A DNA stretch of 64,000 nucleotides from an uncultured archaeon (GCA_903904885.1 CAIVED010000027.1:1558-65557); one strand, 5' to 3'; positions 12,388 to 50,210 are shown, counted from the stretch's first letter. Made by a program: numbers and translations. Notes: a model not told the origin generated them from the letters alone.

Positions 12388-12491
12388 ACATTCGCCTCTA
12401 TTTCACTCTAACTGAAAATATGCTCTCTTTTAAACCAGGATTTAGCCTATTGGCATTTATAAAGGTTTGGTAGCATTTGAGAATGAAAAAT

Positions 12492-13361
12492 TTATTTGCC
12501 AAGTTTTTTTCTTTTCTCTTTTTCTGGTAGTTCAAGATAATTTTCTTTTGAAACTATTGGCCTGCCTATTGCTTTCTCTGCGTCTTTCCTTGCCCTTCCT
12601 GCAACCCCTCCTCCTTTGACAGAAGCGGTTTTACACTCATCAAAACCCCTGGAGTCCTCTTTCTTTGTTATTTCTTTAGTTACTTTCTCTCCAAGCATTG
12701 TAAAGATAAGCTCCAAATCATCCATGTGGTCCCTGAGATTTTGTTTAGCGATGCCTTTATATGCCATATACTCATCAACTGTCTTGCCGAATGTTGCCTT
12801 GCTTATTTCATTTGTTAGGATTGCAAACTCAACATTTTGCTTCACTCCCCGATTTTTCCATTCATCTGTCAGTTCCTGCCTTACTGCTATGCCTCTGACC
12901 CGTTTTTCAACCCATTCATCAGAATACCCTTTTGCCCTGTAAATTTCCTTCATTCTGGCCTGGGCCAATTCGGGGTTTTCTATTTCCTGCACTCTTTCAT
13001 AGCCAACCTTGGCAAGCCAAAGCTTGAACGGCTCTGCCTTTTTTGATGGAATAGATTGTATGATTCTGAAAATTGCCGCAGTATTGGCACAGTTCACGCT
13101 CTGTTTACCCCCAGCAGTTTCAACTGAAAGGGTATGTACAATTTGTACCCACCCCTGCTCAAGGGATTCGTCCCTCTGCTTCATCTTCTGTATATACTGT
13201 TTAGTGTCCTTAGAATCAGTTAATGCATAGACAACATCCTCTATGACAAACCACCACTGATTATCATGCCAAGTCCTTCTTATTTTCTTATCCTGGAAAA
13301 CCACCAGGGCATTATTTGCATCCATTTTGGGTGAGAAAGCATTCTGGCTTATAAATTTCAC
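12492..13361 (-). CDS. Bro-N domain protein (phage antirepressor-like); start may be 13325
   Basis: IRRTWHDNQWWFVIEDVV, FRIIQSIPSKKAEPFKLWLA, NLRDHM. Confidence 0.85.
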   Translation of the reverse strand: MKFISQNAFSPKMDANNALVVFQDKKIRRTWHDNQWWFVIEDVVYALTDSKDTKQYIQKMKQRDESLEQGWVQIVHTLSVETAGGKQSVNCANTAAIFRIIQSIPSKKAEPFKLWLAKVGYERVQEIENPELAQARMKEIYRAKGYSDEWVEKRVRGIAVRQELTDEWKNRGVKQNVEFAILTNEISKATFGKTVDEYMAYKGIAKQNLRDHMDDLELIFTMLGEKVTKEITKKEDSRGFDECKTASVKGGGVAGRARKDAEKAIGRPIVSKENYLELPEKEKRKKLGK

Positions 13362-13410
13362 GTCTGCATGACCAGTGAAGAATTCATATCGATATTAATA
13401 TAGATAGAGT

Positions 13411-14862
13411 CTATTTAGCCATTCCCTTCAACTTCTCCACAATCCATACCATTCCCTCGGTATCAAGACCACAGTATTTCTCTAAGTCTTTCCTTAGCTT
13501 CTCTTTCTCCGTTAAAGGTATCTTAGAGAAAGCTATGTCCAGGAAGGCCAGACTGGCGCTTCCGCCGTTGTTTATCTCCAAATCTGCATAACTCTTGCCG
13601 GTCAAGGCAGGCAGCACATGCTTGATTGAACAGCTGCCTTGCTGGACAGGATTGTAGTAATCAAAGTTTCTGAATGGAACAAGCAGGTCAACAACCCTTT
13701 TGATAACAGAATCTACCCATTTTTTATAAGAAGGGAATAATTTCCCCAGTTCCTTCATTCTCGCTATCTCAAATGACTGGTTGAAGACAATAATACTCCC
13801 TTTGCTGCCAAGAAGCCTCTTTAATTCAGAAACAAATTTCTTCCTCGGATCTTCCTTCCCCGAAGCTAAGAATGAATAATGTTTCACTTCTTTTCCATCA
13901 TCAACATGCAAGGAAAACTGAAATGGAATCTGCTGGTAAGGTTTGCTTTTATCATAAAATGGAATAGCAGAACCGAATGTCTCAAAGTCCAAGTAATAAA
14001 GTGGATATTTCAAGGTAGAAAGAAACTTCTTTATTCCTTCCTTATTCACATGAATCTGTCCTGTTTTAGCGCATTTAAGCTGTATCCCCTGCTTGTCATT
14101 CAGCTTGAAATCCGAAGGAATATCCTTAAGGGAAACAATCCCTCGTTCATAGAGCTCAAACTCCTTGCCTCTTGCATTATACAAATCAAAAACACTTCCG
14201 TCAGGAAGCTGCCAGCATTCTCCCTCAACAGGGCATTCGTAGGGCTTCTTGCATTGCCTGCCAAGAGCAGAAGAAGGGCACTTTTTTGAGTTTATGATAT
14301 TAAACATCTCCTTAACCCTTGAAGGCACAGATTTAATCTCCTCAGCAACTTCTTTTGAGATATCCTCTTTTACAAACAGCTTTTTGACATTAATCTCCCC
14401 TTTTCTTACATATTCATTATTGATATGCATAAGAAAGCATTTGTTAATCTTTAATCCGGCGTGCTCATAAACATACTTCTGGAAAGCAACGTCCGGAATA
14501 TGTTCTTTTTTTACTTCTGTTGACATTTTCACTTCAATAATGTCCCAGCCCTTTGGAATCGGATTAAGAATATCTGCCCTTGAATATAATTGGGTTACAG
14601 AAAAAGCTGCCTCAAACAGGGGCTTTTTCTTTGAAAGCAGTTCAGATGACTTTTTTAGATTCTCACCAAAAGGCTCTGTTGGAATATCAATGCCTTTGGG
14701 AAACAATTTCTTAGCCCATTCCCCAACCAAATTCCCTTCATCAAAAATATGCTGCTGGGCTTTGTCTGTCTTAGGGAGCTTATCTGGCTCATGAAATTCC
14801 ATCCACAAATACTTCGGGCACTGCAAGCCGATCATGTATTTGGATTTGGTTAGGAGGTTCAT
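13411..14862 (-). CDS. DUF2779-domain protein (N-terminal PD-(D/E)xK/Cas4-like part, C-terminal RNase H-like part)
   Basis: LTKSKYMIGLQCPKYLW, ADIL...IIEVK, C..PYECP, YLDFET...PYQQIPFQFSLH, SIKHVLP, YCGLD. Confidence 0.85.
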   Translation of the reverse strand: MNLLTKSKYMIGLQCPKYLWMEFHEPDKLPKTDKAQQHIFDEGNLVGEWAKKLFPKGIDIPTEPFGENLKKSSELLSKKKPLFEAAFSVTQLYSRADILNPIPKGWDIIEVKMSTEVKKEHIPDVAFQKYVYEHAGLKINKCFLMHINNEYVRKGEINVKKLFVKEDISKEVAEEIKSVPSRVKEMFNIINSKKCPSSALGRQCKKPYECPVEGECWQLPDGSVFDLYNARGKEFELYERGIVSLKDIPSDFKLNDKQGIQLKCAKTGQIHVNKEGIKKFLSTLKYPLYYLDFETFGSAIPFYDKSKPYQQIPFQFSLHVDDGKEVKHYSFLASGKEDPRKKFVSELKRLLGSKGSIIVFNQSFEIARMKELGKLFPSYKKWVDSVIKRVVDLLVPFRNFDYYNPVQQGSCSIKHVLPALTGKSYADLEINNGGSASLAFLDIAFSKIPLTEKEKLRKDLEKYCGLDTEGMVWIVEKLKGMAK

Positions 14863-14863
14863 T

Positions 14864-16516
14864 TTACCCGGATCTTTGCAATTTTTTTAACTCCTTGCTA
14901 AATAACTTAAACCGTTTATTCAAAAAATTCTCATAATACTTTGCTAGTATTTTTGGTTTAATTGCTCCAGATTTTCTTTTTAGTTTAAGTTCAACTTTTC
15001 TAAGATCCGATATGGAATTGAAGCAAAGAAGATTGCTTCTGAAAAAATTTTCTTCTTCTTTTTTCTTAGGTTTATATTCTTCACGTTTTTCTATCAGCCA
15101 GTCAGATGGCAAAAAATCTTGTTTTCCGGCATTTTCCCCTCTAGGCAAGAAAATCAAGTTTAATATGCTATTTACTTTATGCTCAGGTATTGAATTTTTA
15201 GACAGAAGGTTATGTGCATAAAAATGATCCCCTTCTCTCTTTGTTTTTTCGGACTCTGTTTCTATTAGACTGGGTGTGCCATTAAGCCAATAGGGTCTTT
15301 TGGATAATAGCATTAGTCTGATACAATTACCAACGCTTGACTTACCGGTACCAAAACTTATTTTTACCAAATCCTCCTTTTTGATGTTTTGTATGGGAAT
15401 ATTTAATGATTTTATTTTATTTCTTGCTAAATTTCTCATTGAAGTTGGGTCCTTTCTAATATTTTGATTGTAACCAGAACCGACATATCGGGATCCCAAA
15501 GCAGACCTCCAAAACCATTTTCTTAGTTCTTTATTTTGACTTTTGGTAGGTGCTTTATTTTTGTTATAATAGAAGAAAATACTCAACACAGTTAGCATAG
15601 TTTGAGAAGGTAGCTCATCTGTACTATTTAATTTAAAATTGCTTTTCAAATAGGCCATAGCATATTTTACTGTCTCTAAAACATTCTTAAAAATCTGGTT
15701 ATATCTTCTTGACTTTTTTTCTCTTATTTTTTCTGCAATTTCACCCAATTTTCGTAAAGAAACATCAACTTCCGCTTCAGGGTCATAATCATTTTTTTCT
15801 TCCAGCTGCAAAATTATTGCGAATGCATGTATAAAAATTATGTCTTTAAGTTTACTAGATATCTTACCCTTATCTTTTTTCTTCCACTCTCTTAAAATTT
15901 TTCTTATACTTGATCTTCTACTCCATGAATCTGATAAGAAAATTGCTTCAGTTGAAATTCTTGTACCTGCTTGATTTATTCTTTCAAATAGCTTTATTGC
16001 ATCCTCAAAATTTCTTGTAGAAACGATGATCGCAGGAAATTTATATCCCTTAAGCATTTTTTCAAATTGATTATAATCAAAATCGGGATTTCCGCGTTCA
16101 TTTTGTTTTAATTCTGGTTTTTTATTAAAATAAAACTCCTTAAAATTAATTGGATTTTTCTGACTTCCTTCGTAATTCTCATCAAATTCTTCTTTGATAG
16201 TTCCTTCAAATCTATCTTGGTTACATAAGTAAAAAAGGGATAACATCCTCTGTTGACCGTCCAATATGAAATATTTATTTCCGGATTTTAAAGGATTCAC
16301 ACCAAATAAATCTCGAGGGTTTATTTTTTTATTTGTTTTCCAGATTGTAAAAACACCTATGGGATAATTCTTGACTAAGCTGTCAAAAAGAGCTTTTATT
16401 TGATTATTTTTCCAAACATAGCCTCTTTGAAACTCGGGGATTGAAACTTTTTTAGACTTAATAAATTTTAATAATCCGTCTAGTGTGAACGTTTTTATTT
16501 CTATTTTGTTTCTCAT
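14864..16516 (-). CDS. DUF262-domain GmrSD-like protein with degenerate C-terminal HNH-like motif
   Basis: IPEFQRGYVW, LDGQQR, FERINQAG; C-terminal DHFY...NSILNL...N..K; very low GC. Confidence 0.85.
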   Translation of the reverse strand: MRNKIEIKTFTLDGLLKFIKSKKVSIPEFQRGYVWKNNQIKALFDSLVKNYPIGVFTIWKTNKKINPRDLFGVNPLKSGNKYFILDGQQRMLSLFYLCNQDRFEGTIKEEFDENYEGSQKNPINFKEFYFNKKPELKQNERGNPDFDYNQFEKMLKGYKFPAIIVSTRNFEDAIKLFERINQAGTRISTEAIFLSDSWSRRSSIRKILREWKKKDKGKISSKLKDIIFIHAFAIILQLEEKNDYDPEAEVDVSLRKLGEIAEKIREKKSRRYNQIFKNVLETVKYAMAYLKSNFKLNSTDELPSQTMLTVLSIFFYYNKNKAPTKSQNKELRKWFWRSALGSRYVGSGYNQNIRKDPTSMRNLARNKIKSLNIPIQNIKKEDLVKISFGTGKSSVGNCIRLMLLSKRPYWLNGTPSLIETESEKTKREGDHFYAHNLLSKNSIPEHKVNSILNLIFLPRGENAGKQDFLPSDWLIEKREEYKPKKKEEENFFRSNLLCFNSISDLRKVELKLKRKSGAIKPKILAKYYENFLNKRFKLFSKELKKLQRSG

Positions 16517-17118
16517 TACAACCTCGCTATCTTCCCTGCATCTGTTAGTTTGATTCCATCTTCTGTGCTAACAAGATCCATGTCTTTCAGTTCGTCAAGA
16601 GCACGGTAAAGCATCGCACTTGATAATTCCACTTTCTTGGCTAAATCGCTTATGCTGTCGAACTTGCCTGATTCCAGCGCTTCAAGTATCTTTTTCTGGC
16701 TCTCGGTTAGTTTGAATGATAACTTTGGAAGATAAACAACAGAGCTTTTGTCCTCTTCAGGATTGTAAGCAATCTTCCTAACTCGGTCATGGCGAGCGTA
16801 AGCAGCAAAAAGAAGTCCAATTGCTTTTGTCTTTCTGCCGGAAGTAATATTCACAAATATCCAGTCATCTTTCGGTTGCAGGTCAATAATCTCAACGCAC
16901 TTGCGAGCTACTTCAACAATGTCATAGACCTCTGTCTTGATTGCCTTGACATCAATAACCTTGCCCAAGGAGCCCTGGATAATCTTCAATGCCTCTGCCT
17001 GCTCCTTGTCAGGCTCTTTGTCAATAAGAAGTATTAATCTGTCAGGCCCAAGCCTTGTTGTAGCCAATATAACTGGCTCTGGACTATATAATGTTGCTAT
17101 AAGTACCTTTTTAACCAT
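16516..17118 (-). CDS. CARF plus winged-HTH regulator (Csa3-like)
   Basis: KVLIATLY..EPV, DRLILL, VNITSGRKT CARF motif, C-terminal wHTH (SISDLAKKVELSSAMLYRAL..LTDAGKIARL); ATG 17118 with AGGGGG SD preferred over 17169. Confidence 0.85.
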   Translation of the reverse strand: MVKKVLIATLYSPEPVILATTRLGPDRLILLIDKEPDKEQAEALKIIQGSLGKVIDVKAIKTEVYDIVEVARKCVEIIDLQPKDDWIFVNITSGRKTKAIGLLFAAYARHDRVRKIAYNPEEDKSSVVYLPKLSFKLTESQKKILEALESGKFDSISDLAKKVELSSAMLYRALDELKDMDLVSTEDGIKLTDAGKIARL

Positions 17119-17273
17119 ATTTGCCCCCTTAGAATCAGTTGGCTCTTGTTTGTTTATAAACATTTCCATAGGAAACCCTCAAAACCTGCTTCTTTATATA
17201 TCTTTCCATATATTAGTATAAATATATACCAAATAATAGAAATGTTTAAATAGAAGCGGGTTAGACTATTGCC

Positions 17274-18146
17274 ATGAAAAATGAAAAAATCAAAAAATAT
17301 CTTCATAAAAAAATAAAGGGATTTCAGCCTATTTCTCAGTATAATGAGGTGGTTTCAATAAAAACAATGATTGCATCAATAACAGCAATGGTTGAAAAAA
17401 CAGGAAAGGTTAACTTTGACTTCTCTGATGTGAAATCAATTCTTGATAATGCAATAGAAATAAGTTTCTTTTCAGGAACTGAGAAAGATATTGCTACGAT
17501 AAGTTGCCCTGAAGTAGATGGTGTTCTTTTGTCTATCGAAGGTCCCAAGACCCTGAGCCTGGATAAATGCAGAAATATTGTGAATAAATTTTCAAAAAAA
17601 ATCAGTGAAAAGGCCAGAATAGTCTGGGGAGCAAAAATAAATAATAAATTGAAAAAAATAAAATGTCTTGCCATATTAGCACAGATAAATAATAGGGATA
17701 TAATTTATGATAAAAAGGATAAGCTAAAGTATATTAAAAAAGAAATTATTAATATAGACCGACCAATTAAGAAATTCATTTTAAAACTTAATGAAATTGA
17801 TGGAATTATGACATATTCCTGCTGTGCGGGGCATTCCATGATTGATAAAGAACAAAAAAATCTTAATATATCTCCTACTTTTGAATCTAGTGATTATTGG
17901 ATCATAAATCATCAAACAGGGGCGATATACGATAATCCTTTCATAAAAATTAGATATGTTCCTAAATCAGAAAGGTTAGTATGTGAAAAAATAATTCCTT
18001 TTTTCATAGTTAGAGGCTTCGAGTTTTCATTTCCTCTGCGCAATAATCGGGAAATTGTATTTTTTTCGAGATGTATTACCAAAATAAACTGGAGAAAACT
18101 GACAAAAGAGCTTTCATTAGAAAAGGAAAAATGGAGATTAAAATGA
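17274..18146 (+). CDS. FtsZ C-terminal-domain fragment fused to a Tyw3-like SCxGH domain
   Basis: VNFDFSDVKSIL, GVLLSIEG, ARIVWGAKI align with FtsZ NLDYADVKAIM/ANVIWGARV; then IDRPI..LNEIDGIMTYSCCAGH. Confidence 0.65.
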   Translation: MKNEKIKKYLHKKIKGFQPISQYNEVVSIKTMIASITAMVEKTGKVNFDFSDVKSILDNAIEISFFSGTEKDIATISCPEVDGVLLSIEGPKTLSLDKCRNIVNKFSKKISEKARIVWGAKINNKLKKIKCLAILAQINNRDIIYDKKDKLKYIKKEIINIDRPIKKFILKLNEIDGIMTYSCCAGHSMIDKEQKNLNISPTFESSDYWIINHQTGAIYDNPFIKIRYVPKSERLVCEKIIPFFIVRGFEFSFPLRNNREIVFFSRCITKINWRKLTKELSLEKEKWRLK

Positions 18147-18589
18147 TGAACGTCATATCAAAAACAGAGCATCTGAACAAGAAGGGCTGGCTTTTAACAA
18201 AAGAAGAAGTTGAAAGCAAGGTAAAAGAATTTCTAAAGCTTGACCCAAATGTAGAAATAATTAGGATTGACGGATTCCAGGCAGAATATGTCACTGTGTT
18301 ATACAGCGAAAAACCCACCTATAAAAAAGAAAGAGATTTCATTCACGAGTTTGAGTTTGATGAAAAAAGAATAAGCATGAGTGACAAAACTTTTCTTAAC
18401 ATATTTGGCATAGAGCCAATACACAAAAAAATAATAGCCATAGAAGGAAGGACAAAAAAAGATGGTCTTTTTTTGTCGACATACAGACACCCAAACAAAC
18501 ATCTGTTTCCTGAAAAAGATATGTTCTACTTCTTCACAATAGAAGAGCCGTATCATGATATAATTGAAGAGGTAAAAGATGAATCTTGA
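18131..18589 (+). CDS. Hypothetical protein (start uncertain)
   Basis: In-frame ATGs at 18131-18146 overlapping the upstream stop; operon-like packing. Confidence 0.55.
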   Translation: MEIKMMNVISKTEHLNKKGWLLTKEEVESKVKEFLKLDPNVEIIRIDGFQAEYVTVLYSEKPTYKKERDFIHEFEFDEKRISMSDKTFLNIFGIEPIHKKIIAIEGRTKKDGLFLSTYRHPNKHLFPEKDMFYFFTIEEPYHDIIEEVKDES

Positions 18590-19280
18590 AGCAATTTATC
18601 CTCAAAGGCCGTTTGTTCTGATAAATGATTCGGGCTTTTATTTTGACGAAATCAATAAGGACTTGAAGGATGTATTGGAATATCCTGATTATGATTTCCT
18701 GCTGAAAAACATTGAGGAATTGAAAAATAGCAAGAAAGTGATAATACTTTATCCAACCCAAAAAAGGGAGATTGAGCTGATGTCAGTTTATCTTCCTATT
18801 GCAAAAACCCCTGTTAACATGCTTCATCTTGCAGGAAAGTTCCTGCAAAATGCAAATAAATATGATGAGAATGAGATGCTCAAATTGGCAGAAAAAGAAA
18901 ACAGATATGGGTGGCTGAGCATTTTTGTTTTTGGAAGACTGCATAAAAAAATTAATCTGAACCCATCATACCTTTTGACAACAAAGCCTTTAATGAAAAT
19001 GTGGGAGCATTATGACTTGAAAGGTATCGCTTTGCCTAATACAAAAGAATATATTAATTCAAATGAAGAATTCAGCCCTATCCTATTTCTTGAATTAGCA
19101 GCTGCCGAGCTTTTAGGAAAAGAAACAAGGGAAAGCATAGCTGTCAAAAAGCTATTAAGCCATAATATTGGCGAAGAGATAAAGTCAGATGAATTGGATT
19201 TGACTGAAAGTCTATTCAACAGCCTAATGAGTGCAGGACTGATTTATCAAAAGGAAAAAGGAAAAATAGTAAGGATATGA
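18579..19280 (+). CDS. Hypothetical protein with possible C-terminal winged helix
   Basis: Ends LFNSLMSAGLIYQKEKGKIVRI, like MCM/RPA-type C-terminal WH; GAGGT SD. Confidence 0.6.
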   Translation: MNLEAIYPQRPFVLINDSGFYFDEINKDLKDVLEYPDYDFLLKNIEELKNSKKVIILYPTQKREIELMSVYLPIAKTPVNMLHLAGKFLQNANKYDENEMLKLAEKENRYGWLSIFVFGRLHKKINLNPSYLLTTKPLMKMWEHYDLKGIALPNTKEYINSNEEFSPILFLELAAAELLGKETRESIAVKKLLSHNIGEEIKSDELDLTESLFNSLMSAGLIYQKEKGKIVRI

Positions 19281-19600
19281 GACAGAAAATGAAAACAATA
19301 CCTGAAAAATACATGAAAAAACTGACAGACTGGAGAAAATGCTGTACTGACCTCACAGAAAAAGAAATAAATGAAGTTGTAAGCTTAGGCAAAGAAATAA
19401 CAATGCAGCCAAAGAAGAAAATGCTTGCCAAAGGGGCAATATTCTTTCTTCAAGGCAATGAACATCTTTCACTGGATAAAATAAATGAGATAGGCGGTTC
19501 AAAAACAAAATACTGCTCTGATGAATCAAAAATCATATGGGCTGCTGAAATAAAAAGCAGAACCGAAAAGCCAAAAATAACCTCTTTTTACATTTATTGA
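19277..19600 (+). CDS. Hypothetical protein
   Basis: ATGA overlap with upstream gene. Confidence 0.55.
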   Translation: MRQKMKTIPEKYMKKLTDWRKCCTDLTEKEINEVVSLGKEITMQPKKKMLAKGAIFFLQGNEHLSLDKINEIGGSKTKYCSDESKIIWAAEIKSRTEKPKITSFYIY

Positions 19601-19664
19601 ACTTCAAACTGTCCAAAAACATTAACAACCTTTAAATATTACTTCGTATATACAAAGTAATACC

Positions 19665-19934
19665 ATGGAAACAGTCACATTGAAGATGGAGAAAGAGATG
19701 GTCAAAGAGATTGACAGCAAACTAAAAGAAAACAGGTACAGCACAAGAACCGAATTCATAAGAGATGCTGTGAGGCATAAGCTAAGCCAGATGGAGAAAG
19801 AACTGATTTTCAAAAGGCTTGAACAGGCCAAGGGAAGTTTAAAAGGGAAAGCCAGAACAGATATAAGCGAAGAGGAAGCAAGGGAGCAGGCTGCAAGAGA
19901 AATAGCAAAGCAATTTGGAATTGAGTTAGATTAA
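19665..19934 (+). CDS. Ribbon-helix-helix (CopG/NikR-like) antitoxin-type protein
   Basis: METVTLKM...EID......YSTRTEFIRDAVR. Confidence 0.85.
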   Translation: METVTLKMEKEMVKEIDSKLKENRYSTRTEFIRDAVRHKLSQMEKELIFKRLEQAKGSLKGKARTDISEEEAREQAAREIAKQFGIELD

Positions 19935-20336
19935 TTCTTCTGGTTTTTTGACAACAATTCCCATAACCCCATAAAAGTGAGCATCACGGCTTATCATCAA
20001 CGCATCATTATCTTTCGCTAAAACAGCATGAAATGCGTCTCCGGAGGGTATTTTCAACTGGTTTTTCATTTTTAATGCATCTTCTGTTTGTTTTTCACTT
20101 GTACTAATATTCACTCTTAATTCCGGAGGCACTATTTCAAACATACTGACTATTTGCTTATCAGTATAAAATTTTCTTAGCTCAACCAGAAGCATATCGC
20201 TTATCAGGAACAAACCCCCTTCATCCACAACCTTCTTTATAAACCTAAACGCCCAATCTCCAAGCGGCCTGAGATTGTCTGAACGATTTTCAAAATAGTC
20301 ACGCCATATGCAGGCGTCAATGTAGTATTTTTGCAT
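19926..20336 (-). CDS. PIN-domain ribonuclease (VapC-like)
   Basis: YYIDACIW, E, GDAFHAVLA, SRDAHF acidic PIN residues. Confidence 0.85.
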   Translation of the reverse strand: MQKYYIDACIWRDYFENRSDNLRPLGDWAFRFIKKVVDEGGLFLISDMLLVELRKFYTDKQIVSMFEIVPPELRVNISTSEKQTEDALKMKNQLKIPSGDAFHAVLAKDNDALMISRDAHFYGVMGIVVKKPEELI

Positions 20337-20431
20337 TAATTCTTAATATATATGCAGTATAAATACTTTGGACGTGGCGGCCGCCACGGCGCATGGTTAA
20401 AATTTATAAAGCTCAATGCATTAAACAAACC

Positions 20432-20599
20432 ATGAACCTCAAAAAATGCCCCCAGTGCGGCTCTTTCAACCTTGTGCCCGAAATAGGCGGAGCAACAGGG
20501 CTGTGGAGATGCAAGAACTGCGGTTACGTTGGTTCATTCTTTGTTGAGCAGACGGTTGATGAAAAAATGTTAAAGAAAACTAAATTTGTAAAAAAATAA
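20432..20599 (+). CDS. Small zinc-ribbon protein
   Basis: CPQCGS...WRCKNCGY; TTTATAAA about 25 nt upstream of the ATG. Confidence 0.7.
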   Translation: MNLKKCPQCGSFNLVPEIGGATGLWRCKNCGYVGSFFVEQTVDEKMLKKTKFVKK

Positions 20600-20770
20600 T
20601 CCGTTTTCTGGGCAGTTCTTATTTTTGCTTCTTGCTTTTGATTGTTGCCTTGATTGCCAGGCCTGCGTTAACTTGCATTCTGCAAGTAACATCATATTCT
20701 TGCATGGCACTCGAGCAGAAGAAGCAGAAACAATATCCGGTTTAATGCAAGAACCAGAAAACTGGATTTT
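20599..20770. repeat. Dispersed structured repeat, copy A (no inserts)
   Basis: Aligns with 46926-47152 (same orientation), 43464-43754 (reverse) and 26924-26999; ends CCGTTTTCTGG...CCAGAAAACTGG. Confidence 0.85.
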
Positions 20771-20802
20771 GTAAGATTGAAAAATTAGGAAAAATGAAAA
20801 AT

Positions 20803-21351
20803 CTATTTGCACAATTCGCAATTATCCTCAAAGCACATGCACTCCGGCGCGTAGTACTCTTTTGCGTGATGGCACAGCGGGCATTTCTCCGGCGGCTCCT
20901 TTCCAACATGGATATAGCCGCATTTTGAGCATTTCCATGCTATTGGCTTGCTTCTCTTGTAGAGTGTCCCATTCTCAAGCATCTCGAGAAGTTTCTTGTA
21001 CCTTTTTTCATGATGGCTTTCAACTTCCCCTGTTTCCTTGAACAATGTTGCAGCAGCCTTGTTCCCTTCTTTCTCAGCATCAACCTGGAAATCAGGGTAC
21101 ATCTGCGATGTCTCGTAATGCTCCCCTTCAATTGCCGCCTTGAGGTTTGCCTTTGTATCGCCAATCCCCTTCAAAAGCTTGAATTCCTGTTCACCATGCT
21201 CAAACTCGTTGTCAGCGGTCTCAAGAAATATCCTTGCAATGTAATGGTAACCTTCCTTTATTGCAACATTTGCGAAAAAAGTGTACTTGTTCCTTGCCAT
21301 TGATTCGCCAGCAAAGGCTTTTTTAAGATTATCTTCTGTCTTACTAACCAT
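20803..21351 (-). CDS. rbr: Rubrerythrin
   Basis: AFAGESMARNKY, EFEH, GEHYE, ESHH, C-terminal CSKCGY..CPLC rubredoxin domain. Confidence 0.93.
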   Translation of the reverse strand: MVSKTEDNLKKAFAGESMARNKYTFFANVAIKEGYHYIARIFLETADNEFEHGEQEFKLLKGIGDTKANLKAAIEGEHYETSQMYPDFQVDAEKEGNKAAATLFKETGEVESHHEKRYKKLLEMLENGTLYKRSKPIAWKCSKCGYIHVGKEPPEKCPLCHHAKEYYAPECMCFEDNCELCK

Positions 21352-21395
21352 TTTATCCCCTTTAATTAAAAATAAAAAAAAAGTTTAAAAAAAAT

Positions 21396-23099
21396 TTAAC
21401 CGCATCCGCCTGTTGCTGGCGCTGTTGAAGCTGTGCTTGCGGCTGCTATTGTTGAACCGCATTCAGCAGGCTTGGTTGAATCGTAGGCAGAGCACATCGC
21501 GCCAAGGATTGAGTTTGCATCCCTTGCACCGCTGTATTCCTGGCCCTCGATGAATATTGTCGGCGAGCCCTGGACTCCAAGCAAATTGCCAAGATTCTGC
21601 TCCTTTGCGAGCAATGCCTCTGCTTCGCTGGCCTGGCAGTCCTTTATCTTCTGGGTGTCAAGCCCCAAATCCTTTGCAACCGCTTCCCAGCAGCTGTCGG
21701 CATTCTGCGCAGAGCATTTTGAGTTCATTGCAACTGCAAATGCGAACCATTTGTCAATTCCCATGTACTTGTTGACGCACAGTTCCCTCACATCCTGGCG
21801 AAGCTCCTGGCCTCCGTGCATTGAGCAGTATTTCTGCGTGCTGTCAAGGCAGGAATCCGCGCTTCCGTAGTTGGAGTAAATCACATAGTGCGGGTTGAAT
21901 ATCGCCTTGCTTCCAAGCTTGTCGTAAACCTGTTTGACTATTTCTTCTGCCTGGTTTCCGTAAGGGCAGTAGGCCATCACAAAGAAATCAACCTGAGGCT
22001 TGTTGTCTCCGAGAGTAACGCCTATGCTCTTGAGCATCTCAGCCTGCTTTTCGGCGCTGATGTAATGATTTGCTCCTGTAACCTCATCAAGCAGCCTGTA
22101 TTTTCCGTTTTCCGGCTCAAACAATGCGCTTACCTGGGCATTATTCTGCCATACATAGGCCTGTTCTGCATTCTTGTCAAATATGAATGCAGGAACAACA
22201 GTAAGATTGTACTGTGAAACCAGTGCCTTGCCTTCATCAGAGCTGATGTCAACATTGTTTACATCCAGGTTAAGGAAAACCTGTTTTAAGGAGTCAACAA
22301 TCTGCGAATCATCACACTGGGCGCATGTTTTGTCGTTAACAACAGTCATTGAAACCTTTGCGTCATCAGTGTATTCGCATTTTGCTGCATTTGTCCCTGC
22401 ATTTGCGCATTTCGGGATTTTCCCATTATTCTGCATGCAGTCAGCATCCGCAGTGCAGGCAGGAATATTGCTGCAGGCAGGGCTGTTCACGTTCTGGCAC
22501 ATTGCCCTTGTAAACGATGCCAGGTCTCTCTGGCCGCTGTAGTCCTTTCCGTTTATCTTGATTGTCGGGCTTCCCTGGGCTCCGGCAATGCCTGATGAGC
22601 TGAATGAAGCAGAAAGCAGCTGTTTTCCCTCTGCGCCTTCATAGCACTTTTTGATTGATGCCTTGTCAAGCTTTAGCTGGTCTGCGCACTGCTCCCAATT
22701 TGCTGGGATGCTTCCTGAATTCTGGTTCATGCACAGGATAAGGTCCATGTACTTTTTAGGCTCGTATTTTATTGCGCAAAGCTGGACAGTATCGCCATTT
22801 ACCTCATTAACGCCATGAAGCGAGTTGAAGCTTCCGTCAGAATTTGCAGTTCCTATGAAATTTAGATTGAAAACAACAGAATCCCCAAGATTCTTAAGCG
22901 CAGGGATGATTGCATCCTCTGCCTGAACTCCGTAAGGGCATTGGCTCATTACATACATGTCAACATTTACTGTGCCTGATTTTGGCGCCTGCATTTTTGC
23001 TGCAAACAGCCAGCCGGCCACAGCCACAACAACAACGATTATGGCCACAGCCCAATAAGCAGAATAATTTTTTTTAGTCTTATGTGTCTTTTTTTTCAT
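21396..23099 (-). CDS. Membrane-anchored double thioredoxin-fold (DsbA/GILT-like) protein
   Basis: N-terminal TM; two repeats of MxxCPYG...GSPT; many Cys. Confidence 0.75.
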   Translation of the reverse strand: MKKKTHKTKKNYSAYWAVAIIVVVVAVAGWLFAAKMQAPKSGTVNVDMYVMSQCPYGVQAEDAIIPALKNLGDSVVFNLNFIGTANSDGSFNSLHGVNEVNGDTVQLCAIKYEPKKYMDLILCMNQNSGSIPANWEQCADQLKLDKASIKKCYEGAEGKQLLSASFSSSGIAGAQGSPTIKINGKDYSGQRDLASFTRAMCQNVNSPACSNIPACTADADCMQNNGKIPKCANAGTNAAKCEYTDDAKVSMTVVNDKTCAQCDDSQIVDSLKQVFLNLDVNNVDISSDEGKALVSQYNLTVVPAFIFDKNAEQAYVWQNNAQVSALFEPENGKYRLLDEVTGANHYISAEKQAEMLKSIGVTLGDNKPQVDFFVMAYCPYGNQAEEIVKQVYDKLGSKAIFNPHYVIYSNYGSADSCLDSTQKYCSMHGGQELRQDVRELCVNKYMGIDKWFAFAVAMNSKCSAQNADSCWEAVAKDLGLDTQKIKDCQASEAEALLAKEQNLGNLLGVQGSPTIFIEGQEYSGARDANSILGAMCSAYDSTKPAECGSTIAAASTASTAPATGGCG

Positions 23100-32002: not shown

Positions 32003-32120
32003 GCCCCTGTAGTATAGCTTGGATAGAATACGGGCTTGCGGTAGCGGCGAACAATGTTCGCCTGAGTTTACAGCTCACTGCAAACAGCCTGTGACCCGGG
32101 TTCGAATCCCGGCGGGGGCG
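32003..32120 (+). tRNA. tRNA-Arg(GCG) with canonical 37/38 intron (32042-32085)
   Basis: GCCCCTG/CGGGGGC acceptor, CGGGC-TTGCGG|A-GCCTG, CCGGG-TTCGAAT-CCCGG; BHB helix TTGC/GCAA. Confidence 0.9.
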
Positions 32121-49187: not shown

Positions 49188-50147
49188 ATGAGAATTAAAC
49201 TAAAAAAATTAAAACAAAAAGAACTGATTAATAATTTCAAAAAAGAAAACAGTCTCACCTGGGCAGAACTTTCTGATGTACTAGGCGTCAAAAAGGGGGC
49301 ATTGCTGAACTGGTATTATGAAAGAACACTATTACCCCGTTCAGTTTATAAAAAGATAGACCCAAGAGGCATTTATAGAAAGTTCATAATACAAGAATAT
49401 AGTGAAAAGTGGGGAAAAAGTAAAGGGGGCCACAATTCAAAGGGGAATACTAAGTATGTAAAAGCCCCTCAATATTCCGAAAAATTAGCGGAGCTTGTAG
49501 GAATAATTCTTGGTGATGGAAATTTGAATTTGTACAATAAAAACGGCTTTGGAACTTATTCAATTAGAATAACTGGCGATGCCAACAAAGACGCGGAATA
49601 CTTAAGAGTTTACATACCCCATTTATTTAGAGATATTTTTAACGTAGAAGCAAAAATATACAAACCAAAAAACAATAATGGGTTAGTAGTGCTAGTTCAT
49701 AGCAGGATGGTCCTAGAGCATATGGAAAAAATGGGTTTAAAGAATGGAAATAAGCTTAAAAATCAGATTACGATACCCAAATGGATATGGAGTTCTGATT
49801 CTTATTTGAGAGCATGCACAAGAGGATTAATCGATACGGATGGTTCAATTTATGAGCTTAAAACACACTGGCCAGGCACTTATCAGATAAATTTTGAGAA
49901 TAGCAATATGACCCTACTAAAAGACTTCAGAAAAGCTCTGATTCACATAGGGTTTATTGTATCAAAAATCTGCTCTAACCGGTCCAAGATAAGAGGGAAA
50001 AAGATATATATAACTCGTAAAGACCAGATAGAAAAATATTATAAAGAGATAGGTTCTTCAAATCCTAGAAAGAGAGAAATACTTAAAAGAAGCCAGCCCC
50101 GTGGTGTAGTGGTCAAATTTCTCTCTGAAAAGAAAGACCAGGCATAG
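49188..50147 (+). CDS. Free-standing LAGLIDADG endonuclease with N-terminal HTH; 3' end overlaps tRNA-Gln
   Basis: LTWAELSDVLGV HTH; LAELVGIILGDG and TRGLIDTDG; TTTAAATA at 49159. Confidence 0.88.
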   Translation: MRIKLKKLKQKELINNFKKENSLTWAELSDVLGVKKGALLNWYYERTLLPRSVYKKIDPRGIYRKFIIQEYSEKWGKSKGGHNSKGNTKYVKAPQYSEKLAELVGIILGDGNLNLYNKNGFGTYSIRITGDANKDAEYLRVYIPHLFRDIFNVEAKIYKPKNNNGLVVLVHSRMVLEHMEKMGLKNGNKLKNQITIPKWIWSSDSYLRACTRGLIDTDGSIYELKTHWPGTYQINFENSNMTLLKDFRKALIHIGFIVSKICSNRSKIRGKKIYITRKDQIEKYYKEIGSSNPRKREILKRSQPRGVVVKFLSEKKDQA

Positions 50148-50210
50148 TGGCCTTTGGCAGTCTGAAACTGAAGACAGCCATTGACGGCGGTTCGAATCCG
50201 CCCGGGGCTA
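50095..50210 (+). tRNA. tRNA-Gln(TTG) with D-loop intron (50117-50141) and 37/38 intron (50158-50175)
   Basis: AGCCCCG/CGGGGCT acceptor, GTGGC-CTTTGG|A-GCCAT, GGCGG-TTCGAAT-CCGCC; BHB helices GGTC/GACC and CTTT/GAAG. Confidence 0.9.

Follow-up and report, generated by a model that had tools for sequence, protein, structure and literature searches.

Four co-oriented open reading frames (ORFs) of 217, 550, 483 and 289 aa occupy positions 12492-17169 of the minus strand in a 64,000-nt stretch of DNA from an uncultured archaeon (GCA_903904885.1). This whole stretch, which lies on contig 27 of the assembly, is referred to here as the window. In order of transcription, the genes encode a Csa3-like transcription factor in which a CARF domain is joined with one of the winged helix-turn-helix (wHTH) type, a GmrSD/BrxU-like DUF262 protein, a DUF2779 protein and a Bro-N protein. 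The data presented below argue that these minus-strand genes probably represent a mobile defence operon under a ligand-gated CARF autoregulator, working in the manner of BrxR and CapW. Repression, a ligand, inducibility and an anti-viral role are properties that we infer for the operon.

The first three genes are closely packed. Base 16516 is common to the CARF and DUF262 genes, which gives a 1-bp overlap, and a single base (14863) lies between the DUF262 and DUF2779 genes; these three genes are translationally coupled. The gap from the DUF2779 gene to the Bro-N gene is 49 bp, or 85 bp if the latter starts at ATG 13325. The G+C content is 0.30-0.38 in 1-kb intervals from 14 to 20 kb, compared with approximately 0.42 for the contigs, and is 0.40 at the Bro-N end of the cluster. 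A reading made earlier from the sequence of the window by itself (the sequence-only reading) had described four co-oriented genes, the first three with 1-bp overlap or spacing, in a low-G+C block. Both observations were borne out, and all of its domain assignments were matched by profile searches of Pfam, NCBIfam and PADLOC. It had overlooked a divergent operon of four genes that also lies in the island and shares a control region with the CARF operon.

The regulator and the shared control region

The first gene (16516-17169, minus strand) encodes a protein of 217 aa that scores above the curated cut-off of the NCBIfam Csa3 model (TIGR01884; 85.2 bits, cut-off 60.2). It also matches the PADLOC profile CARF3 (PDLC01849, 3.4e-70) and, in Pfam, HFX_2341_N, CARF_Card1 and several HTH families; HTH_5, MarR and TrmB profiles align with residues 150-205. 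An alignment-based AlphaFold model was obtained with a predicted local distance difference test score (pLDDT) of 93.5, and its best Foldseek match was Csa3 (2wte/6wxq, E 7e-11, 207 columns). The structures of Saccharolobus solfataricus Csa3, free and with cyclic tetra-adenylate (cA4), were matched over the full length (2wte, 6wxq and 6w11; E 7e-11 to 5e-9). In VIA-align comparisons, the CARF domain of the model was superposed on those of Can2, Cam1, Card1 and Csm6 with Z scores of 16-17 and root-mean-square deviations (rmsd) of 2.1-2.6, and Csa3 aligned with the regulator with a Z score of 16.1 over 192 residues. Csa3 was found by the fold search alone; it was not found at E<=0.01 in PDB sequence searches with the regulator, either by itself or as a profile. 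The identification of the first gene product as a Csa3-like CARF-wHTH protein, as in the sequence-only reading, is thus upheld by both the hidden Markov model (HMM) score and the fold.

The putative ligand pocket was examined in 35 sequences, with identities down to 28%. Members of the CARF superfamily are marked by a Ser or Thr after strand 1 and by the signature [DN]x[ST]xxx[RK] after strand 4, as set out in PMC4012209. In the model of the regulator, strands are seen at residues 4-9 and 86-90, T9 follows strand 1, and the signature is present as N90-I-T92-S-G-R-K96. K96 is invariant in the sequences compared, at least 90% of which also retain R95 and T9. Motif 2 of Csa3a, Leu-x2-Gly-h-Arg, is described in PMC8699464 as the phosphate-binding floor. 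It is kept here as I91-T-S-G94-R95-K96, with the Gly and the basic residue retained and the middle hydrophobic residue changed to Arg.

The right end of the gene had earlier been placed at 17118. This position corresponds to an internal Met, and the ORF is open to ATG 17169; the extension begins with M-E-x-F/Y-I-N in many relatives. The upstream ATG is in frame and the extension free of stop codons in 15 of 15 loci with an ATG and a TATA-like word 48-60 nt upstream. In the window, the TATA box TATATAAA of the CARF operon (17193-17200, minus strand) stands 23 nt upstream of ATG 17169, an arrangement that is conserved across loci. An ATG 23 nt after a TATA box has the spacing expected for a leaderless archaeal mRNA. 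The internal Met is preceded by a GGGGG run resembling a Shine-Dalgarno sequence, several homologues begin there, and a second TATA-like element, TTTATAAA, is found inside the long ORF (17153-17160, minus strand). The gene is given here as 16516-17169; the start at 17169 is at least as likely, and 17118, which would yield a protein of 200 aa, is a possible second start.

It is apparent that the promoters of the regulators are marked across the family by an 18-bp palindrome, TTCTAY-N6-RTAGAA. Exact matches to TTCTAY-N(5-8)-RTAGAA were observed in 12 of the 35 upstream regions of 170 bp (5,950 bp in all), and only four times in the remaining 414,480 bp of the loci. The 1.31-Mb genome contains a single exact match, the perfect palindrome TTCTATCAAATAGTAGAA upstream of a second copy of the regulator gene on contig C23. 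The palindromes are often paired, 19-20 bp apart, and the right half runs into an element of the form GAAA-N2-3-TATATAAA, which can be read as a B recognition element (BRE) and TATA box. In the window, two adjacent degenerate palindromes, site A (17241-17224) and site B (17221-17204), each with two mismatches, lie at 17204-17241 on the minus strand and are candidate operators. The divergent operon has its own TATA box, TTTAAATA (17245-17252, plus strand), 22 nt upstream of ATG 17274, which mirrors the element on the CARF side. The outer half of site A overlaps the BRE-like element of the divergent promoter and the outer half of site B that of the regulator promoter, and the two promoter elements are mirror images, forming an inverted repeat (17150-17169/17236-17255). 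The regulator is predicted to bind these palindromes. For Csa3a, an 18-bp palindrome located 12 bp upstream of the BRE/TATA is described in PMC8699464.

Genes downstream of the regulator and their variation among loci

The second gene (14864-16516, minus strand; 550 aa) encodes a protein that matches the Pfam family GmrSD_N (PF03235; 100.8 bits, 1.4e-28) and the PADLOC profiles PDC-M55C (4e-35) and HEC-05; the score for GmrSD_C (PF07510) was 17.9 bits, below the cut-off of 23. D86-G-Q-Q-R90 is invariant in 45 aligned family members. At the C-terminus there is a putative, divergent His-Me-finger motif consisting of D430-H431, N449, N453 and N462, in which D430-H431, N453 and N462 are invariant or nearly so in the same 45 sequences. 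An alignment profile compared with the PDB matched BrxU (7p9k, 2.5e-24), with the C-terminal stretch included. BrxU was also the best Foldseek match (1.6e-10) of a model with a pLDDT of 84.7, followed by SspE and DndI. The protein belongs to a family of approximately 548 aa, with 615 relatives at E<=1e-5 in archaea and bacteria (e.g. Omnitrophota and Patescibacteria) that are 40-50% identical. Its sequence and predicted fold make it a candidate for a divergent type IV restriction enzyme of the GmrSD/BrxU type.

The product of the third gene (13411-14862, minus strand; 483 aa) is a DUF2779 protein (PF11074; 141.3 bits, cut-off 23.3, 2.4e-41) in which an N-terminal Cas4-like PD-(D/E)xK domain is fused to a C-terminal 3'-5' exonuclease domain of the DEDDy type. 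In 24 aligned archaeal members, the PD-(D/E)xK residues D97, E110 and K112 and the exonuclease residues D292, E294, D392, Y463 and D467 are invariant. At least 90% of these sequences retain Cys15, Cys210 and Cys216; no fourth Cys reaches that level. A weak match to RNase_H_2 was seen, as well as matches to Cas4 in PADLOC (6.4e-6) and to Cas_Cas4 in Pfam (17 bits, below the cut-off of 22.7). No solved relative was found when a DUF2779 profile was compared with the PDB, and BLASTP detected no significant similarity to one stand-alone PDDEXK_1 partner nuclease (see below). The sequence-only reading had proposed a PD-(D/E)xK nuclease joined to an RNase H-like exonuclease as a candidate new effector. 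The invariant residues agree with that architecture, but it had already been published: a Cas4-like and DEDD two-nuclease arrangement of DUF2779 was described by Majorek et al. 2014 (PMC3985635), and the same architecture is reported for MMSYN1_0389 in a 2026 analysis (PMC13621843).

The fourth gene (12492-13361, minus strand; 289 aa) encodes a Bro-N/DinD-like protein. It matches Bro-N in Pfam (2.4e-13), phrog_15286 (5e-80) and the PADLOC profile PDC-S13 (PDLC04920, 2.7e-110), with residues 13-285 aligned to profile positions 1-276 of 286; PDC-S13 is itself only the label of a defence candidate. The C-terminal half has a weak DinD-like match (NF008573, 7.8e-6), far below the cut-off. A promoter-like element, GAAATTTATAAG, is present in the gap between the DUF2779 and Bro-N genes, approximately 25 nt upstream of ATG 13325. 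Because of this position, and because the PDC-S13 alignment begins at residue 13, ATG 13325 is the likely start. The gene would then probably have its own promoter and form a separate transcription unit, rather than belonging to one operon with the other three genes as had first been supposed.

It was of interest to determine how far this arrangement is shared. Approximately 1,185 homologues of the regulator were found at E<=1e-10 in a large protein collection, mostly on contigs of 1-5 kb. The closest carry the names 'Csa3' and 'CRISPR locus-related DNA-binding protein', from organisms given as Nanoarchaeota and Woesearchaeota archaeon. A search of a viral collection yielded one relative (L070:7995-9433), on a contig of a giant-virus metagenome-assembled genome, where a gene of 278 aa starts at the regulator stop codon; this is probably a mis-binned archaeal contig. 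Among 401 genomes of the phylum, relatives at E<=1e-10 were present in 42, representing 39 of 280 genera. Forty relative loci were extracted with up to 9 kb on each side; ORFs were called with a simple greedy script, clustered and annotated with Pfam. Many of the homologues are situated no more than about 1 kb from the end of a contig (e.g. G180:C64:3-602, G399:C78:2-511 and G137:C2:4-624), which is consistent with a conserved gene whose strain-variable flanks break assemblies.

It is apparent that the regulator stands at the head of an operon. In 33 of the 34 loci with at least 400 bp of downstream sequence, the regulator is followed by a gene in the same direction, and the gap is 60 bp or less in 30 of 34, often between -4 and +3. 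In 25 of 35 loci the gene upstream points the other way; these divergent neighbours are often AAA+ ATPases (8 loci). The downstream cargo is varied. Type I restriction-modification (RM) genes were observed in L032, L047 and L066, and Eco57I/MmeI-type (IIG) RM genes in L035, L036 and L039. A full GmrSD is present in L036 and L050, a DUF262-HNH protein in L066, a DISARM-like DrmE-helicase-PLD set in L063, EVE and AAA_5 genes in L052, and MNT/HEPN pairs in L039, L040 and L058; Schlafen-type proteins, RhuM and Bro-N were also found. Unmistakable restriction, DISARM or McrBC-like genes occur in the operon in 10 of 34 loci, the window included, and defence-type cargo in 21 of 34 if the count is extended to Cas4-like nucleases, toxin-antitoxin pairs, Bro-N, RhuM and Schlafen-type proteins.

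A fixed four-gene system was considered and rejected. In tblastn searches of the 40 loci, the DUF262 protein of the window found no match at E<=1e-5, the DUF2779 protein matched in five loci and the Bro-N protein in six. Other GmrSD proteins, unseen by tblastn with this query, were identified by Pfam in L036, L050 and L066; similarity between the DUF262 protein of the window and the GmrSD protein of L050, as determined by BLASTP, is confined to the N-terminal motif region. The linkage implied by the sequence-only reading is therefore conserved in part: the head position of the regulator stands, but the exact set of four genes does not, and L050 alone repeats the order CARF-GmrSD-DUF2779.

One further component recurs. 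A nuclease of the Cas4/RecB family was found within 9 kb of the regulator in 16 of the 19 loci with at least 5 kb of downstream sequence (19/41 of all loci). It takes the form of a PDDEXK_1 protein of approximately 400 aa with Cys15 and a CxxCx5C motif, of the same domain fused to a UvrD helicase, or of DUF2779. Cys15 and CxxCx5C are present in all eight (8/8) stand-alone partners. The partner nuclease is mostly co-directional and downstream, and the downstream operon contains either the PDDEXK_1 form or DUF2779, never both. The DUF2779 gene of the window fills the slot otherwise held by Cas4-like nucleases. Across the family, the regulator and a Cas4-family nuclease form the conserved core, and the remaining cargo is exchangeable.

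DUF2779 is itself more widely distributed, in 99 of the 401 phylum genomes, mostly without the regulator; where a genome has both, the two are no more than 8 kb apart in six cases out of nine. The DUF2779 counts, like those for GGDEF given below, include four unpublished genomes, and no single claim rests on these. Twenty high-scoring DUF2779 loci from genomes without the regulator were inspected. RM or type IV restriction genes were situated within three genes of DUF2779 in 13 of the 20; GmrSD adjoins it in two (L080 and L089), a MazG and Schlafen-helicase pair in L077, and Bro-N in L082. The other seven had housekeeping or unannotated neighbours only. The 13 loci support the view that DUF2779 is a resident of defence islands.

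Genomic setting of the island

The four genes form part of a low-G+C island of 10 genes and approximately 7.9 kb (~12480-20395), situated in the spacer that separates ppsA from a Zn-ribbon ORF (20393-20599). In another genome of the same genus, G067 (locus L069), ppsA is followed after approximately 100 bp by a homologue of window positions 20432-20566, within the Zn-ribbon ORF, and then by a homologue of 21458-22965; the island genes are absent between ppsA and the Zn-ribbon ORF. Because ppsA adjoins the Zn-ribbon ORF homologue in that genome, the segment ~12480-20395 is an insertion relative to it. In the search of the 401 genomes, the regulator was found neither in G067 nor in G393, the one other genome of the same family. 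Copies that share 77-80% identity with it occur in other families and in a different order (G026, G180); ppsA, used as a housekeeping yardstick, is only 81-83% identical between the two congeners. This comparison points to recent transfer. The most likely reading is that of a horizontally acquired defence island in a CRISPR-less archaeon.

No CRISPR array or cas core gene had been noted in the 64 kb of the window, and this holds for the whole assembly (1.31 Mb in 44 contigs, 98.73% complete, 2.18% contamination). No match to Cmr2, Csm1 or Cas1 was obtained at E<=0.01 in the 1.31-Mb assembly, using searches that gave matches in control genomes, and a crude script (exact 18-mers occurring at least three times at a spacing of 45-110 bp) detected no CRISPR array in it. 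CRISPR arrays are often left unassembled in genomes of this kind. The description CRISPR-less holds for the genome as assembled, and with it the earlier statement that the regulator heads a nuclease operon in a genome without CRISPR-Cas.

Sources of a nucleotide signal were sought in the same way. Cas10-like matches (TIGR02577, E<=1e-3) were found in four of the 401 phylum genomes, none of them above the cut-off; only one (G357) is among the 42 regulator genomes, and its regulator is a distant relative (29% identity). The GGDEF family is present in 191 of 401 genomes, which seems a large number for archaea. It was rejected as the signal source, being present in 18 of the 41 other regulator genomes against 190 of 400, which is no enrichment. 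The genome of the window contains one GGEEF protein of 301 aa with an intact motif of the diguanylate-cyclase type (C34:10389-10733; L068, ORF 1378-2283). Among Cas10, SMODS and GGDEF, no oligoadenylate or cyclic-nucleotide synthase was found to track the regulator.

The divergent operon (17274-19600, plus strand) encodes proteins of 290, 172, 233 and 107 aa. The first resembles the C-terminal domain of FtsZ, with no GTPase domain (FtsZ_C 3.2e-7; TIGR00065 positions 171-339, 3.9e-12), and the last has a weak FtsZ_C match. Searches of PADLOC, PHROGs and NCBIfam gave nothing for these proteins beyond weak FtsZ_C matches, and the ESM Atlas yielded no usable match. Homologues of the 233-aa protein adjoin the regulator in L052, L061 and L062. 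The second CARF-wHTH copy of the assembly, which is 86% identical and runs off the end of its contig (C23:1-3609, L033; 3.6 kb, 37% G+C), lies beside a homologue of the 172-aa protein, an FtsZ_C-like protein (142 aa) and a divergent two-domain AAA+/nSTAND3 ATPase (482 aa). A second island is one possible reading of this locus, a strain variant another.

At the right end of the island, ORF calls and profiles identified a small regulator of the ribbon-helix-helix (RHH) type (19665-19934, plus strand) and a PIN-domain gene (19926-20336, minus strand). The two are convergent and overlap by 9 bp, unlike the usual co-directional order of antitoxin and toxin. An integrative element was considered for the island and set aside: neither an integrase nor flanking direct repeats were found, and there is no tRNA gene at either border. 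Four runs of a single freshwater-sediment study supplied short, shallow DNA contigs matching the region. In two of these runs, one contig each contains a joint from 12387 (the start of ppsA) to 19615 (just past the divergent operon), with 32 and 59 letters on the joint sides. These contigs may be at most a weak hint of a population variant that lacks, or has replaced, most of the island, with the RHH and PIN genes kept.

Other differences between the congeners were seen nearby. The rubrerythrin gene beside the island (20803-21351, minus strand) is missing from the corresponding place in G067, in which window positions 20567-21457 are replaced by 86 bp, and rubrerythrin was not found in G067 with this query. 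The ppsA gene of G067 (G067:C10:14619-18251, L069) is a single frame of 1224 aa, compared with 802 aa here. The match is split at about residue 425, and the approximately 400 extra residues look intein-like. The source organism is a DPANN-type archaeon, as judged from probable tRNA introns, from archaeal ribosomal and RNA-polymerase genes in a genome of the same order and from the Nanoarchaeota and Woesearchaeota names of homologues. Two Rfam tRNA matches in the window, of 118 nt (32003-32120, plus strand) and 116 nt (50095-50210, plus strand), were not reported by ARAGORN; these tRNA genes probably bear introns.

Proposed mode of action, alternatives and known systems

In the mode of action proposed here, a dimer of the regulator would bind at the 18-bp palindromes overlapping the BRE/TATA elements of both promoters, its own and the divergent one, and so keep both operons low. 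A nucleotide-type ligand, bound in the conserved CARF pocket, would alter DNA binding and lift this control during infection. The GmrSD-like enzyme would then cut foreign, probably modified, DNA, and the ends would be degraded by the DUF2779 nuclease, its Cas4-like domain acting 5'-3' and its DEDD domain 3'-5'.

Several observations weigh against this proposal. The palindromes of the window are degenerate, with none at one mismatch or fewer, and 23 of the 35 upstream regions contain no exact site. DNA binding by Csa3a in vitro is reported in PMC8699464 to be non-specific and independent of cA4. Motif 1 of Csa3 (T-h-G-F-N/D-E), which contacts adenine in Csa3a (PMC8699464), is only partly kept in the regulator (T9-L-Y-S-P-E14-P-V-I-L-A19, mapped by its position in the loop between strand 1 and helix 1 and not by residue-level structural alignment): Thr, the hydrophobic residue and Glu are retained, but the adenine-stacking Gly-Phe is replaced by Tyr-Ser and the Arg is lost. 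On this comparison of motifs the specificity of the pocket for cA4 is therefore doubtful, though the pocket itself is conserved. There is no SMODS match in the genome, and a search of it for cas10 and CD-NTase revealed no source of a cyclic oligonucleotide. DUF2779 is not enriched in the genomes with the regulator (9/42). Finally, the cargo does not look defensive in four loci, which carry a phosphatase (L059), an RNase of the beta-lactamase fold (L060), KaiC and an Na/H exchanger (L064) and an epimerase (L065), and in eight loci it lacks any Pfam match.

Alternative explanations were weighed against the same data. The genes might form a DNA-repair or recombination module, in which the regulator senses damage or replication stress and induces an end-processing nuclease and a DinD-like protein, the restriction genes being mere neighbours. 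Such a module would agree with the weakly DinD-like half of the Bro-N protein, with the UvrD-nuclease fusions that are frequent partners, with repair-type genes at some loci (HhH-GPD in L034, PCNA and Hjc in L048, RNase_T in L046) and with the seven CARF-free DUF2779 loci among housekeeping neighbours; moreover, in a minimal Mycoplasma the DUF2779 homologue MMSYN1_0389 is described as quasi-essential (PMC13621843), suggestive of a housekeeping role in that organism. The explanation is nevertheless unlikely. Absence of the island from the congener and from most of the phylum is not what is seen for a core repair function, the immediate partner is an enzyme of the GmrSD/BrxU type, unmistakable restriction, DISARM or McrBC-like genes are present in the operon at 10 of the loci, 13 CARF-free DUF2779 loci lie among RM genes, and the Bro-N protein has a strong PADLOC match (2.7e-110) to a defence candidate. 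A second alternative, also unlikely and slightly less favoured, is that the regulator is a constitutive, ligand-independent autorepressor that limits the cost of the cargo, with the CARF domain serving as a dimerisation scaffold and conveying no signal. The genome and phylum searches found no cognate synthase, motif 1 is altered, the regulator travels with the island, and its gene is often at assembly breaks, as would be expected for a conserved module shared by variable elements. A mere scaffold would, however, hardly account for the strong constraint on the pocket signature in the 35 sequences: K96 is invariant, and at least 90% of them retain R95, the Gly-containing motif 2 and T9. The CARF domain of the model also superposes closely on CARF domains that bind cA4 or cyclic hexa-adenylate (cA6).

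Two further alternatives invoke cyclic oligoadenylate. The regulator of a symbiont could eavesdrop on cA4 made by a type III CRISPR system of its host cell; this is speculation, and very unlikely. The fold is closest to the cA4-binding Csa3, the genome is small and DPANN-like, and Cas10 is nearly absent from the phylum, so that any oligoadenylate would have to come from outside; the Gly-Phe of motif 1 that contacts adenine is, however, not kept. The least probable explanation is that the protein is no regulator but destroys cyclic oligoadenylate as a Crn1-type ring nuclease, a group in which Sso1393 and Sis0811 also have the CARF-wHTH architecture. Sis0811 and SSO1393 are full-length matches with better rmsd values than Csa3 (Foldseek query TM-score 0.63-0.67, rmsd 4.1-4.5; VIA-align Z 13.4-16.0 over 181-186 residues), and an alcohol side chain (T9) follows strand 1. 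The HMM nevertheless assigns the protein to Csa3 above the cut-off, the conserved position at the head of operons and the promoter palindromes point to DNA binding, and these genomes contain no source of oligoadenylate.

The ligand-gated defence operon thus remains the preferred reading. A broader version of it is put forward tentatively, with rather less than even confidence: the regulator and the Cas4-family nuclease would be an autonomous, mobile and CRISPR-independent cassette that switches on whatever defence cargo is plugged in, upon a non-CRISPR nucleotide signal, in archaea without Cas10. The signal could be, for instance, a product of the breakdown of nucleic acid by the partner nuclease, a second messenger or a signal from a host cell. 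If the cassette reading is true, CARF signalling has been uncoupled from type III CRISPR, and the pairing of Csa3 with Cas4 may be older than the CRISPR adaptation module, or a survivor of it.

To our knowledge, nearly everything that is understood of CARF domains concerns their role as receptors of cyclic oligoadenylate in type III CRISPR systems, RtcR being the main exception. The CARF domain of RtcR, a regulator of RNA repair, is called divergent by Makarova et al. 2014 (PMC4012209), who noted members unlinked to CRISPR-Cas in each CARF family. The clade of the present regulator is already catalogued, as the PADLOC CARF3 profile shows. In the literature searched, Csa3-like proteins at the head of non-CRISPR defence islands in Nanoarchaeota were not found described; the 2020 CARF census and supplements lay outside this search. 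The same is true of their promoter palindrome and Cas4-family partner, and the neighbourhoods of the clade may be listed in that census. A 2026 preprint on Nanobdellota makes no mention of CRISPR, CARF, defence or restriction. A well-conserved Csa3-like clade, in a phylum nearly free of Cas10, is seen here to head RM, GmrSD, DISARM-like and toxin-antitoxin operons, and DUF2779, a widespread two-headed nuclease, is placed in a defined setting next to a restriction enzyme. Should a ligand be found, it would indicate how CRISPR-less, genome-reduced archaea time their innate defences and what CARF pockets sense outside CRISPR, and would establish an archaeal counterpart to BrxR and CapW.

The known proteins closest to the regulator are Csa3 and Csa3a of Saccharolobus solfataricus and Sulfolobus islandicus (2WTE, 6WXQ, 6W11), with which it shares the two-domain architecture, length, motif 2 and CARF signature. 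An 18-bp palindrome next to the BRE/TATA and a neighbouring Cas4-family nuclease are further features in common with Csa3a as described in PMC8699464. The palindromes themselves differ, being TTCTA-N8-TAGAA here and TCCC-N8-GGGA in Csa3a. The regulator also lacks the Gly-Phe of motif 1 and has an identity to Csa3 of only 15-17% in structural alignments. Unlike Csa3, it resides in a genome without a CRISPR array, Cas1 or Cas10, of which there are almost none in the phylum, and unlike the Csa3a proteins linked to CRISPR-Cas of type I-A, it is accompanied by restriction and innate defence genes and by no adaptation cassette.

The two nucleases can be compared in the same way. The DUF262 protein has the N-terminal DGQQR and the C-terminal DH...N...N of BrxU/GmrSD (7P9K), SspE and DndI, with BrxU as the top match by both profile and fold. 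It is, however, only 14% identical to BrxU, scores below the GmrSD_C cut-off and belongs to a distinct family of approximately 548 aa. The DUF2779 protein has the architecture and the same D/E/K and DEDD plus Tyr residues as MMSYN1_0389 of JCVI-syn3.0 (PMC13621843; PMC3985635). The Mycoplasma protein is reported to have only two cysteines (PMC13621843), whereas the archaeal proteins keep Cys15, Cys210 and Cys216; and in contrast to the quasi-essential MMSYN1_0389, the gene in the window is accessory and part of a probable defence operon.

In outline, the arrangement is like that of the wHTH-WYL regulators BrxR and CapW in BREX, CBASS and further defence systems of bacteria, in which a small ligand-sensing wHTH regulator is first in, or divergent from, defence operons of many kinds and palindromes are located at its own promoter. 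The sensor differs: it is a CARF domain of Rossmann-like fold and not a WYL domain, for which the regulator gave no match in Pfam, NCBIfam or PADLOC, and the lineage is archaeal. An analogy between CARF and WYL domains was drawn by Makarova et al. 2014 (PMC4012209), and CapW is reported to sense single-stranded DNA (PMC11662680). The resemblance of the present regulator to BrxR and CapW is one of function only.

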